The position numbers and the translations under genes are program-made. This document shows, one piece after another, positions 48,910 to 51,976 of a stretch of 64,000 nt of DNA. Every line of letters begins with the position of its first letter. Within the stretch, counting starts at the first letter, position 1. The stretch spans positions 24,820-88,819 of the IMG/VR virus record IMGVR_UViG_3300046615_000115; one strand, written 5' to 3'. The DNA comes from a virus. Lineage: Duplodnaviria > Caudoviricetes. A model generated the notes under the pieces. The model ran no database searches. It was given only the letters and a program-made list of their open reading frames with translations, and was not told the DNA's origin.

Positions 48910-49252
48910 ATAGAATTTTCTTAGTTATACTCGCAGTCGAGGACTTGCAATATTCATAAGGAAGGAATATAACTAAGAAAATATTCTCTTAAGCGAGAAG
49001 AGGGACACTTAAGAGAATATGAAAGATAACTGATAGGAGAGGATCAGTTATCTTTAAGGTCCGGCATAGAGGAGGAAGACGCCGGGAGGAAACATAGCAT
49101 TAATAGAATTTCTTCTTAGTTGCTATGGTGAAACAAGTTTGATGTTTAGGAATTGCACCTAACTAGCTAAGCAATGCCCTTGGAATATCCACTTTCTATA
49201 TCCGAGTTGAACGGATCAAGGACAGCCGCGTTCACACTAAGTACATCAAAAA
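48910..49252 (-). ncRNA. candidate ncRNA 1: tRNA-like domain plus anti-SD hairpin array
   Basis: ORF-free; perfect 13-15 bp inverted repeats; two 5-bp/7-nt T-loop arms; C/U-rich loops. Confidence 0.7.
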
Positions 49253-49254
49253 CT

Positions 49255-49533
49255 TTAACAAGTAATAACAGGAGGATTGTTAATCCAAAACGTTGGATCA
49301 AACTGCTTACCAATAAGATCAACCGGTTTAGGCCGGATCACATCCCAATTAATTGGGAGACCTTTCTCCAGAGGCTTGTCTTCAACAGAATAACGATCAG
49401 GCGTCTTCTTATCAAACACAAGTTTCAAATGATCTTTAATCACTAACCATTGTTTTTCAGAAATTGTGTCTGTGTCGGATAGCTCTACGAAGCCTTGGAG
49501 CCAATACGTGAAGGACTCAGGAGTCATACCCAT
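49255..49533 (-). CDS. hypothetical protein (likely start 49527)
   Basis: MTPESFTYWLQGFVEL...QWLVIKDHLKLVF, a common phage small-protein pattern. Confidence 0.85.
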   Translation of the reverse strand: MGMTPESFTYWLQGFVELSDTDTISEKQWLVIKDHLKLVFDKKTPDRYSVEDKPLEKGLPINWDVIRPKPVDLIGKQFDPTFWINNPPVITC

Positions 49534-49595
49534 TCCTCTTCATTTGTAATGATATCAGGATGTACATCAAAACCTTCGTACTCATCTTTAAACAT
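49524..49595 (-). CDS. 23-aa acidic peptide
   Basis: AAGGAG RBS, first ORF after the promoter, ATGA-coupled to the next gene. Confidence 0.55.
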   Translation of the reverse strand: MFKDEYEGFDVHPDIITNEEEWV

Positions 49596-49620
49596 TTTAT
49601 TTCTCCTTAGCTTGCAATAC

Positions 49621-49649
49621 ATTATACATGATATAGTATAACAATACAA
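49621..49649 (-). promoter_or_regulatory. sigma70-like promoter
   Basis: TTGTAT-17 nt-TATAAT. Confidence 0.8.
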
Positions 49650-49653
49650 GCTT

Positions 49654-49860
49654 TTAATCATTAAGTGGTTTAATTGGCGTAACATCTTCAGGAACAAGCT
49701 TTTCAGTTAATTCTTCAAACTGATAATTTCTAGTTACACAAAATTCAGGGTGATCAATAACACCTTGGCATGACCAGCAGATATCATTCATGGTTCCATC
49801 TGGAAGATCAAACATCAATTCTCCCCGAGTTAGAATAGCTTGGCAACTTGTACATCTCAT
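49654..49860 (-). CDS. small Zn-finger protein
   Basis: CTSC...CWSC. Confidence 0.75.
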   Translation of the reverse strand: MRCTSCQAILTRGELMFDLPDGTMNDICWSCQGVIDHPEFCVTRNYQFEELTEKLVPEDVTPIKPLND

Positions 49861-49919
49861 GATTGGATTCCTATTTGATTATTTCGGAATCCGCTCCTGA
49901 TTCCTTTAGTGATGTAGAT

Positions 49920-49949
49920 AGAGTATCAGTTAGTTGACTTCCTTGTCAA
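49920..49949 (-). promoter_or_regulatory. sigma70-like promoter with palindromic -35
   Basis: TTGACA-18 nt-TACTCT with TGn; TTGAC-N6-GTCAA palindrome. Confidence 0.7.
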
Positions 49950-49965
49950 TAGTTTATAAAAATAA

Positions 49966-50175
49966 TTATTTACTAAGCTCAACCATCCTATGATAATACA
50001 GATGGTTATCCCTATTCACTGTTAACTGCCAGCCTGACTGGCTCTCGCCAAGACAGTAATTACATTCAGAATAGTACCAATTGATATAACCTTTTACTCC
50101 TAGATATGTCTCTTGTCTCTCTTTCATTTTATCTACAAGATAACCAACACCACATCGCTCGCAATTCTCTAACAT
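49966..50175 (-). CDS. stand-alone YgiT/MqsA-type Zn-finger domain
   Basis: CERCGVGYL...YLG...YYSECNYC...Q...N. Confidence 0.65.
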   Translation of the reverse strand: MLENCERCGVGYLVDKMKERQETYLGVKGYINWYYSECNYCLGESQSGWQLTVNRDNHLYYHRMVELSK

Positions 50176-50203
50176 TCACTTACCCTCTTTCTGAAAATAA
50201 AAA

Positions 50204-50440
50204 TTAATCTTCGTCCCAACTACTTGGTAGGCCATCCATCATTTTATAGAATTCAATGTCAATATACCCATACCAAGCATCTCTAATGAAAATACAAACT
50301 TCCCCTGTTGGGTGGTAGGGATCGATCTTAACATCATTTATGTGACAGTTATAACGTTTTGCAATCCAATGAATTTCTTTGTGGTAGTCCACTCTAATTT
50401 CTGGTCGTTCAAAGGAATAAGCATCTACGTATCTACTCAT
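50204..50440 (-). CDS. hypothetical protein
   Basis: 78 aa, coupled to the upstream gene. Confidence 0.8.
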   Translation of the reverse strand: MSRYVDAYSFERPEIRVDYHKEIHWIAKRYNCHINDVKIDPYHPTGEVCIFIRDAWYGYIDIEFYKMMDGLPSSWDED

Positions 50441-51687
50441 ACGCTCAATTTCTCCTCAATTGTTTTACCGCTATCTTTCCAACTCATTGTAATTGGTACG
50501 GGGTAGTCTACACCAAATCGTTTACGGAAACAATCACCCATCGTAGTAGACAACAAGTCCGCATACTTAGCTTGCACCAAAAATGAATCATGCACTGGAA
50601 GACAAGCTACATTCTTTTCAATCATCACTTCAAGAATATCATTAGCCAAGTGACTATCAGCATTCTGCAAGATGCGACCATAGCTTTCAGATGAACAGAA
50701 GCTATCAACAAACTGTGGGTAAGCATTGTAGATAAGAAGCATGACAGCACTAGCATTACCAAGTGTGTACTTCATTTTATCTTCAGCTTTCAGCAAGTTA
50801 ATCTCTTTACGGATAGCATCCTGTGCAGTTTCTTCACTGAAACAGTTAAACATGATGTTCACTGCAAGCTTCACCATACGACGATCTACTTCATTTGTCT
50901 CATCCTCAAGAATCCCTGAATATACATCCAATGGAAGGTATTCAACATCAATATCTTTCAAAGCTGCTGCTACACGAAAATGAAGATTACAGAAGTCGAT
51001 TTCACAAACATCTTGACCTTCAATCTTGATATCAAGCCGTGCATCTGTATCCCGATTCTTGATAGCAAGTACATCAGCTTTATAGAACCTACCACCATAA
51101 GCAAATGATTCATTAAAGATACGACAGTAGAAGTTAGTTAGAACTTTCCCGTTACCATCAACAATGTTGAATGATTCGTTCATATGATTAAGATTACGAA
51201 CCACCTCCTCCATCTTCTTTACATCTTGTGTGCTCCTGTAGGGAATCGAATTCTTGTTCTCATCCCGAAGCTCAATCACTTCAATCGTATCTTCGTAAGC
51301 TTTCATAGATTCCTCAATTAATTCTTCAATCTGCCATTCTTTGATAAACTTCTCTGTTGGCACAATGAAGCTAACCTCTCTCTTCTCTTTAATCTTATGT
51401 GCCTTACCTACTGTGTTTACCACATATCCTTGCTCTGTTAGGAATGCAACACACTTGATAACCTTACTAGCGTTAATACCTTTCTTACTCACTACCTTAC
51501 GGCTACTAGTCATACGACTGTAGACAAGAAGATTATTCTTCTTAAGGCAAGCAATGAGATTAGTGATAACAACACCTAATGTAGTGAGATCTTTATATCC
51601 CATATTACGTATTGAATTACTAACTCCCCTACTAACCTTAATATCATATGTAAGTAACCTAGTATTCAAGATTACATCACCACCCAT
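50437..51687 (-). CDS. miniature Pol A-superfamily / single-subunit RNA polymerase-like protein
   Basis: GGRFY (DxxGR-like), motif A EIDF, motif B RRMVK, ADSHL, motif C PVHDSF. Confidence 0.75.
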   Translation of the reverse strand: MGGDVILNTRLLTYDIKVSRGVSNSIRNMGYKDLTTLGVVITNLIACLKKNNLLVYSRMTSSRKVVSKKGINASKVIKCVAFLTEQGYVVNTVGKAHKIKEKREVSFIVPTEKFIKEWQIEELIEESMKAYEDTIEVIELRDENKNSIPYRSTQDVKKMEEVVRNLNHMNESFNIVDGNGKVLTNFYCRIFNESFAYGGRFYKADVLAIKNRDTDARLDIKIEGQDVCEIDFCNLHFRVAAALKDIDVEYLPLDVYSGILEDETNEVDRRMVKLAVNIMFNCFSEETAQDAIRKEINLLKAEDKMKYTLGNASAVMLLIYNAYPQFVDSFCSSESYGRILQNADSHLANDILEVMIEKNVACLPVHDSFLVQAKYADLLSTTMGDCFRKRFGVDYPVPITMSWKDSGKTIEEKLSV

Positions 51688-51815
51688 CCTCCATACCTCT
51701 CTCCTATCATATAGCTTGATTTTAAAGATAAAATGCTCTACAGGCCACGTCGTTAAAGGGCTTCAGTAAAAATCCCATAAATAAGTTTGTGTTTTTGTCT
51801 CAATTCACTCCCACA

Positions 51816-51844
51816 AGATTAGCACTCATATTTTCAGATGTCAA
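51816..51844 (-). promoter_or_regulatory. sigma70-like promoter (leftward)
   Basis: TTGACA-17 nt-TAATCT with TGn extended -10. Confidence 0.85.
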
Positions 51845-51910
51845 CCCTGCCTCCAGACAATCCCCTATTCCAACAAAATCTAACCAGCATAAAATCTTTT
51901 GAATTCACGC

Positions 51911-51939
51911 TTGCTTTCCTTGAATCTGTAGCGTAAGAT
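51911..51939 (+). promoter_or_regulatory. sigma70-like promoter (rightward)
   Basis: TTGCTT-17 nt-TAAGAT. Confidence 0.75.
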
Positions 51940-51976
51940 AGGCTCATCTTAATCAGAAACACAAAGGAGAGGAGAA

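Follow-up and report, generated by a model that had tools for sequence, protein, structure and literature searches.

The closest described counterparts of the RNA examined here belong to the cuckoo family, whose members consist of two to four adjacent hairpins with variable stems and the motif CCUCCUCCC in every loop, ar14/alpha-r14 being the three-hairpin form (PMC4615179). For NfeR1 of Sinorhizobium meliloti, the founding member of this family, three redundant anti-Shine-Dalgarno (anti-SD) loops were described to occlude ribosome-binding sites and thereby silence mRNAs (PMC10746234). Repeated UCCC loops that nucleate on Shine-Dalgarno (SD) sequences are also known from RNAIII of Staphylococcus aureus and from RsaE/RoxS-type small RNAs (sRNAs) (discussed in PMC4615179). 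Furthermore, stable and abundant small RNAs of unknown function are encoded in phage tRNA clusters, as reported for the T4 band C/D RNAs and sRNA2 of PAK_P3 (PMC4933390). Overall, a function has been assigned to few of the small RNAs made by virulent phages. Here, we analyzed a window of 64,000 nucleotides (nt), i.e., bases 24820 to 88819 of the 88,819-bp genome of a phage of the Caudoviricetes (IMGVR_UViG_3300046615_000115), and found that it encodes a conserved RNA of about 230 nt with five hairpins, three of which carry pyrimidine-rich, anti-SD-like loops.

According to the original prediction made from this sequence, the loops of the RNA are exact complements of specific ribosome-binding sites and allow it to silence the first genes of two divergent operons, namely the gene for a 416-amino-acid (aa) polymerase-like protein and the first rightward gene, and to gate late genes such as a tail fiber gene, together forming a timing circuit. 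This prediction is partly supported: a conserved minus-strand RNA with anti-SD-like loops is present, and the first rightward gene is still a good predicted partner in our energy calculations, but the specific circuit is unsupported. The anti-SD loop design was already known from the cuckoo RNAs, which the conserved phage RNA resembles in this respect. A conserved, covarying, and often tRNA-fused RNA with three anti-SD-like heptamers represents a candidate phage regulator of translation initiation, and its design ties a phage RNA to a family so far known from Alphaproteobacteria.

Identification of a conserved five-hairpin RNA

The RNA is located in a 383-nt gap between a 92-aa open reading frame (ORF; 49255-49533) and a 1,029-aa tail fiber gene (45782-48871), all on the minus strand. 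Nucleotide searches did not detect it: blastn with the RNA region yielded no match among 50,697 phage records, the whole window gave nothing in Rfam at gathering thresholds, and no blastn similarity to the region was found even in L001, a relative whose polymerase-like protein is 99% identical. L001 nonetheless shows, by eye, the same chain of hairpins with different stems. We worked with 28 IMG/VR loci (85- to 93-kb contigs, each locus spanning ±6 kb; L numbers below), which were fetched via the 416-aa protein and a conserved 131-aa gene. A covariance model, R1, was built from five sequences with a hand-voted structure, while MAFFT/RNAalifold alone gave only the two hairpins H2 and H1. R1 identified one copy per phage in 22 distinct related uncultured phages, with E values of 1e-12 to 1e-56, and no match in Vibrio phage HNL01 or Rheinheimera phage Barba19A, which encode distant homologs of the 416-aa protein.

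Within an alignment fitted to R1 itself, 91.2% of the cells are paired and compensatory change is seen in 56 of the 65 pairs, with a covariation score of 0.644 versus 0.19 for shuffles and 0.07 to 0.09 for slid partners; each sequence alone still folds into the same five hairpins. The minus strand at the coordinates given in Table 1 thus encodes a genuine conserved structured phage RNA. Its three central hairpins, H4, H3, and H2, lie next to each other in each of the 22 members, with four such loops in L010 and two in L022 and L028. The exact 8-nt loop of H3 recurs in many relatives, and the 5' arm of H1 coincides with the U-tract that follows H2. The most conserved linker of the RNA, ACCUUAAAGAU, holds the only strongly conserved single-stranded linker of the family (CUUAA).

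Several lines of evidence identify the minus strand of the window as the RNA strand, in agreement with the original prediction. The RNA lies on the strand of the tRNA genes, and in five relatives (L008, L013, L018, L025, and L030) its first base directly follows a tRNA. Moreover, the sense folds hold 125 G-U pairs, and the sense minimum free energy (MFE) is the lower one in 21 of the 22 members. A promoter-like site precedes the small ORFs and the RNA (Table 1); it is not listed by a consensus promoter scan because its -35 hexamer matches at only three of six positions. In L002, TTGAAG-17-TATAAT precedes the tRNA-RNA unit. At the other end, H2 is followed by a conserved UUUCU(U/A)A with three to five U residues, and H3 is the only hairpin that passes a consensus terminator scan (13 pairs, 3 G-C, tail CATATTCTCT). 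Expression of the RNA, its ends, and any effect on translation are inferred.

Table 1. Features of the five-hairpin RNA, its claimed targets, and associated genes (window coordinates)
Feature	Position	Strand	Evidence and remarks
Five-hairpin RNA, ~230 nt, full-length match to model R1	48905..49134	-	cmsearch 184.6 bits, E 4e-48
H5, A-rich loop, conserved GUUUCACC 5' of it	49093..49127	-	MFE fold; helix 1 covaries at 6/6 pairs
H4, loop CUUCCUCCUCU at 49068-49078	49061..49085	-	Fold; helix 3 covaries at 5/5 pairs
H3, 13-bp stem, loop CCUCUCCU at 49035-49042	49022..49055	-	Source of the 11-mer (49031-49041) and the 9-mer
H2, atypical loop UCCCUCUUCU at 48996-49005, then conserved UUUCU tract	48981..49020	-	Folds
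H1, long AU-rich hairpin, inner conserved UAUUGCAAG...CUUGYCAG	48917..48980	-	Helix 8: compensatory change at 15/16 pairs
Promoter-like TTGTAT-17 nt-TATAAT, upstream of small ORFs and RNA	49621..49649	-	Putative; blastn 97% over 93 nt with site directly preceding the RNA in L001
Claimed 11-nt target UGAUAGGAGAG, leader of polymerase-like gene	51699..51709	-	Chance level; rank 26/150 with accessibility
Claimed 9-nt target AGGAGAGGA, SD of first rightward gene (51977-52210)	51965..51973	+	Pairs with UCCUCUCCU; rank 2/150, -10.5 kcal/mol
Claimed 7-nt target AGGGACA, start of tail fiber gene	48874..48880	-	Pairs with UGUCCCU; rank 122/150
Claimed 8-nt target AGAAGAGG upstream of terL	40791..40798	-	Pairs with CCUCUUCU; rank 63/150
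Claimed 8-nt target AGGAGGAA, SD of gene 5307-5810	5292..5299	+	Pairs with UUCCUCCU; rank 114/150
416-aa polymerase-like gene	50437..51687	-	phrog_4756, function unknown
131-aa conserved gene (136 aa in L001/L002)	45384..45776	-	Directly after the RNA in relatives; marker for fetching 26 loci

Relation to cuckoo RNAs and the loop motif

The phage RNA shares the adjacent-hairpin design of the cuckoo RNAs (Rfam ar14, RF02344; NfeR1; CcsR1-4/RSs0680a-d of Rhodobacter). As in these, the stems vary by compensatory change (in the phage RNA at the 56 pairs mentioned above), each loop carries one C/U-rich anti-SD-like motif, and a U-tract comes after the last hairpin. At relaxed thresholds, the stretch from H4 to H2 (48979-49095) aligns end to end with ar14 at 38.8 bits (E 4e-6; gathering score 58.8), with H2 taking the position of the terminator hairpin. 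The ar14 model gave no match in 12 relatives at the gathering threshold and none in 5 at E ≤ 1. In contrast to the cuckoo RNAs, the RNA described here is phage encoded, has two extra conserved hairpins (H5 and H1), and is often fused behind a tRNA, in DNA of 40% G+C. Furthermore, the cuckoo motif CCUCCUCCC is not found in the phage loops listed, of which 48 of 65 carry CUCUCCU instead. Since the motif differs and the score stays under the gathering threshold, we regard the RNA as cuckoo-like in design and not as a member of the family.

With RNAIII and RsaE/RoxS-type sRNAs, the phage RNA would have in common that several loops with a repeated pyrimidine motif nucleate on SD sequences. This is an analogy only, as these Firmicutes RNAs are chromosomal regulators with another motif and without sequence or structural homology to the phage RNA. 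The T4 band C/D RNAs and PAK_P3 sRNA2 resemble it by their tRNA-adjacent position only, with no sequence relation apparent, and PAK_P3 sRNA2 has been linked to a T-loop-like 11-mer instead of anti-SD loops.

The loop motif was analyzed in 65 CU-rich loops extracted from the 22 RNAs, with expected counts taken from shuffles of the same loops. CUCC was present in 64 of the 65 loops (30 expected), CUCCU in 62, and CUCUCCU in the 48 loops mentioned above (3 expected), while CCUCC, present in 13, was not enriched. CUCCU is common to the loops and the 3' end of 16S rRNA. Because of the enrichment of CUCC and CUCUCCU over shuffles, the loops are sequence specific and more than merely pyrimidine rich. 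The only loop of the 65 that lacks CUCC is the H2 loop of the window phage, UCCCUCUUCU, i.e., the one used for the match to the tail fiber gene.

Complementarity to ribosome-binding sites

All five complementarities of the original prediction are present as described. The plus strand reads TGATAGGAGAG at 49031 to 49041, and positions 51699 to 51709 are its reverse complement over 11 nt; the RNA words complementary to 51965-51973, 48874-48880, 40791-40798, and 5292-5299 start at RNA positions 92, 128, 132, and 58, respectively. The 11-mer covers 7 of the 8 nt in the H3 loop and extends by four bases (AUCA) into the beginning of the 3' arm of the 13-bp stem.

The claim that these matches exceed chance was not borne out. 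We called 186 genes with a simple script based on ORFs and SD sequences, kept the 150 with SD support, and defined the translation initiation region (TIR) as positions -30 to +3. At least one perfect 11-mer occurred in 38.8% of 1,000 mononucleotide shuffles of the 230-nt RNA against the 150 TIRs, and the number of TIRs with a match of at least 8 nt was 22.8 on average in shuffles versus 16 observed; 7- to 8-mer matches are trivial. If only the loop letters were shuffled, p was 0.37 for the TIR of the polymerase-like gene and 0.19 for that of the first rightward gene. The pairing is thus a consequence of loops rich in C and U facing leaders rich in purines. Between such loops and purine-rich ribosome-binding sites, base composition alone generates exact complements of 9 to 11 nt, which hence do not qualify as targets without support from covariation or accessibility. 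A second perfect 11-mer, likewise at chance level, exists between the linker ACCUUAAAGAU and AUCUUUAAGGU at the SD of an early gene (genome positions 5922-6128), which lies 18.7 kb before the start of the window.

When plain duplex energies were calculated for the loops ±2 nt, the TIR of the polymerase-like gene ranked 1st and that of the first rightward gene 6th of 150. In 7 relatives, the polymerase TIR ranked between 1 and 4 among 6 to 20 local genes, with the first divergent gene on rank 2 in 4 of these. The top-ranked leaders, i.e., those of the polymerase-like and the first divergent gene, are at the same time the most purine-rich ones. We also ranked the TIRs with a home-made, IntaRNA-like accessibility score that adds the opening energies of RNA and target (Table 1). 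Here, the first rightward gene reached rank 2 through the H3 loop, while the polymerase-like gene fell to rank 26 and the other three claimed targets to ranks between 63 and 122. In the SD of the first divergent gene, GGAGAG is kept in five phages (the window phage and 4 relatives).

Covariation between loop and target, as would be expected for dedicated pairs, was not observed in relatives. In an 8-by-8 matrix of phages with a polymerase homolog, cognate pairs on the diagonal were not better than noncognate ones, neither by longest complement nor by duplex energy. The RNA of the window phage has 11-mers to four foreign polymerase TIRs, and that of L018 matches only 6 nt of its own. Furthermore, five phages have the target block UAUGAUAG in unchanged form but differ in the arm of the H3 stem, and the RNA 11-mer is shared by L026, L027, and L028, whose loci contain no complementary copy.

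Silencing of the polymerase-like gene through the 11-mer is hence not supported: the match is at chance level, needs opening of the stem, is unconserved, and loses its rank once accessibility is considered. Gating of the tail fiber gene is likewise unsupported, as it would rely on a 7-mer between the atypical H2 loop and a lineage-specific insertion with a low accessibility rank. The first rightward gene is a top predicted partner by accessibility but does not stand out from loop shuffles.

The divergent control region that holds both leaders (51688-51976) is conserved in relatives. On the minus strand, TTGACA-17-TAATCT (51844-51816) would give rise to a conserved and probably structured leader of about 120 nt for the polymerase-like gene, and on the plus strand, TTGCTT-17-TAAGAT (51911-51939) to a leader of about 31 nt for the first rightward gene. 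The notion that the UGAU of the target lies inside a -10 box (TATGAT) and is untranscribed was dropped, as the aligned and conserved TTGACA-17-TAATCT is found about 120 nt further upstream. Because of this conserved upstream promoter, the target block lies inside the leader of the polymerase-like gene.

Possible function of the RNA

We tentatively favor, without great confidence, the reading that a conserved phage RNA with anti-SD-like loops acts by generic occlusion of SD sequences and yields the listed matches as by-products, with no dedicated antisense circuit. The RNA would be cotranscribed with tRNAs or small early genes, and as it immediately adjoins the tRNA 3' end in several relatives, its 5' end would be released by tRNA processing. 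H4, H3, and H2 present, on freely varying stems, loops with CUCUCCU or CUCCU, the core of the 16S rRNA 3' end. These loops would pair redundantly with strong purine-rich SD regions (AGGAG with or without a following AG) and hinder binding of the 30S subunit. Since strong SD sequences are more common on early than on late structural genes in these phages, translation of early genes, and perhaps of host genes, would be dampened as the RNA accumulates.

Several results are consistent with generic SD occlusion. TIRs pair with the loops much better than intragenic windows (27% versus 3% at ≤ -12 kcal/mol). In the window phage, pairing is weaker for late structural genes than for early and middle ones (p = 0.003), also after pairing with the 16S anti-SD is regressed out (p = 0.006). 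In 17 relatives pooled, genes upstream of the RNA reach -9.9 kcal/mol versus -7.3 kcal/mol for those downstream (p = 1e-7), with the same direction in 15 of the 17 loci.

Other observations weigh against this reading. The genuine 16S anti-SD, too, pairs better with early genes (p = 9e-6), and the contrast between early and late genes is therefore not specific to the RNA and is compatible with, though not diagnostic of, a temporal switch. The loop motif comprises 7 nt, yet its exact complement AGGAGAG is found in only 5 TIRs of the genome (genome-wide, there are 12 copies versus 8 expected), and GGAGAG shows no early excess in 18 phages (6.2% of early versus 7.3% of late TIRs). A private SD tag of early genes complementary to the loops was tested for with negative outcome. 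The extra conserved CU, which SD pairing does not explain, could reflect binding of a protein or of some other partner. In addition, a generic anti-SD RNA would also hit genes that the phage itself needs, the U-tract after H2 is short (UUUCU) and leaves the 3' end of the RNA uncertain, and both gene calls and interaction energies come from rough scripts of our own.

A wider proposal, which we consider rather doubtful at present, is that a clade of soil and aquatic phages of about 88 kb makes, together with its tRNAs, a multivalent anti-SD mimic that titrates leaders with strong SD sequences, both of early phage genes and of host mRNAs. If so, translation would shift to late genes with weaker SD sequences, and the RNA would be an RNA-only switch from early to late expression or for host shut-off, built on the cuckoo design and either evolved or borrowed by a virus.

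Other explanations have to be considered alongside generic SD occlusion. Protein sponges such as CsrB/RsmZ are likewise built from variable stems that repeat the same loop motif. The CUCUCCU loops could accordingly dock a host or phage RNA-binding factor or mimic the 16S 3' end as a decoy, e.g., for a nuclease or toxin directed at this sequence, and the fixation of 7 nt in the loops, where SD pairing needs about 5 nt, as well as the rare and not class-specific occurrence of the exact complement in TIRs, would fit such a role. We nevertheless regard factor binding as unlikely, because the neighboring conserved genes have no match to an RNA-binding family and provide no candidate protein, and the closest known RNAs of this design act by base pairing (PMC10746234). 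Less probable still is a sponge for CsrA/RsmA on the opposite strand. The plus-strand loops do read AGGAGAGG, AGAGGAGGAAG, and AGAAGAGGGA, all containing GGA, but the element abuts tRNA genes on their own strand in relatives, the G-U pairs would become A-C mismatches, the MFE favors the sense strand, and the flanking genes and the promoter point to the minus strand; altogether, this makes a functional plus strand exceedingly improbable. A CsrA sponge of the CsrB/RsmZ type was rejected for the same reason, GGA loops existing on the plus strand only.

The hairpins might also be purely cis acting, as terminators, processing sites, or stabilizers that insulate the tRNA/early unit from the downstream late genes through intrinsic or Rho-dependent termination or RNase III/E processing, with no function in trans. 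In favor of this, the element always has a promoter/tRNA unit on one side and the next gene block on the other, a conserved UUUCU comes after H2, H3 is terminator-like in the consensus scan, and RNase III could cleave the long, perfect AU stem of H1. However, terminators and processing sites need conserved stems, whereas here the stems vary and the loops are most conserved, and termination does not explain the same loop heptamer in three consecutive hairpins, so that a role confined to cis appears distinctly unlikely. As for the dedicated timing circuit, in which the H3 loop nucleates on the ribosome-binding sites of the polymerase-like (11 nt) and the first rightward gene (9 nt) and the H2 loop gates the tail fiber gene, the matches do exist, both leaders rank high by plain energy here and in relatives, and the first rightward gene keeps its high rank with accessibility and its GGAGAG in five phages. 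On the other hand, about 39% of shuffles contain an 11-mer, shuffled CU loops score nearly as well as the real ones, and the high ranks track purine richness. Cognate pairs have no advantage, three relatives share the RNA 11-mer without a copy of the target in their loci, and AUCA is part of a stem and varies while UAUGAUAG is constant. Moreover, the polymerase TIR drops in rank when the score includes the opening of the stem and the structure of the target, and the tail fiber gene is a lineage-specific insertion of low rank. We therefore consider such a circuit very improbable.

Genomic context and neighboring genes

The genes of the window are organized in a rightward block (1-14 kb), a leftward block (14.5-51.7 kb), and again a rightward block from 51977. 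The leftward block comprises structural genes, terL, and tail fibers, followed by a short operon headed by the 416-aa protein. TerL is about 43% identical to that of Felix-O1-like/Otagovirus-type myophages, which have Gram-negative hosts. Of the sequencing runs listed for this DNA, a rhizosphere metagenome is the only one to contain the whole stretch and may be its source; no RNA run was among them. For host inference, the C terminus of the tail fiber was compared to 185,579 genomes, among which no relative was found.

The 416-aa protein and its six homologs share the invariant motifs DFxxLxxR, RxxxKxxxNxxF, and HDSF in this order, an arrangement that recalls motifs A, B, and C of family-A/T7-type polymerases. 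Searches of Pfam and NCBIfam and a PDB sequence search gave no match for this protein, and an AlphaFold model based on 7 sequences was too poor for fold comparison (mean predicted local distance difference test score [pLDDT] of 53.8).

Only in the window phage is the 1,029-aa tail fiber gene, whose N terminus matches PF08400, inserted between the RNA and the 131-aa gene. L001 and L002 have no tail fiber gene there, and the 136-aa gene, with a weak SD of the UAGGUA type, directly follows the RNA. The 92-aa ORF between promoter and RNA is, like the tail fiber gene, an insertion relative to L001 and L002, but it is present in L030, L026, and L020. The neighborhood of the RNA is thus an insertion hotspot. 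The region immediately 5' of the RNA (49135-49254, minus strand), which had been claimed to be tRNA-like, was recognized neither by ARAGORN nor by the Rfam tRNA model at E ≤ 10 and showed no blastn similarity in relatives, which carry a true tRNA there instead.

Downstream of the 131-aa gene, a second conserved noncoding stretch was found (45007-45362, minus strand), pieces of which are 75 to 92% identical at the same position in many relatives. Five relatives (L022, L023, L024, L025, and L007) have a tRNA-Met at the equivalent position, and the stretch may represent either a further structured RNA or a tRNA region that has degenerated. Just past it lies a gene for an HNH homing endonuclease (44221-45006; phrog_953, E 3e-60). 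In L022, a match to YrlA (Y RNA-like) below threshold (39.2 bits versus 69) is located near a tRNA-Gly at 3805 to 3867. Finally, group I introns scoring above the Rfam gathering threshold are present in the late region of two relatives, L008 (10729-10992, 75.8 bits) and L022 (9636-9862, 71.5 bits).

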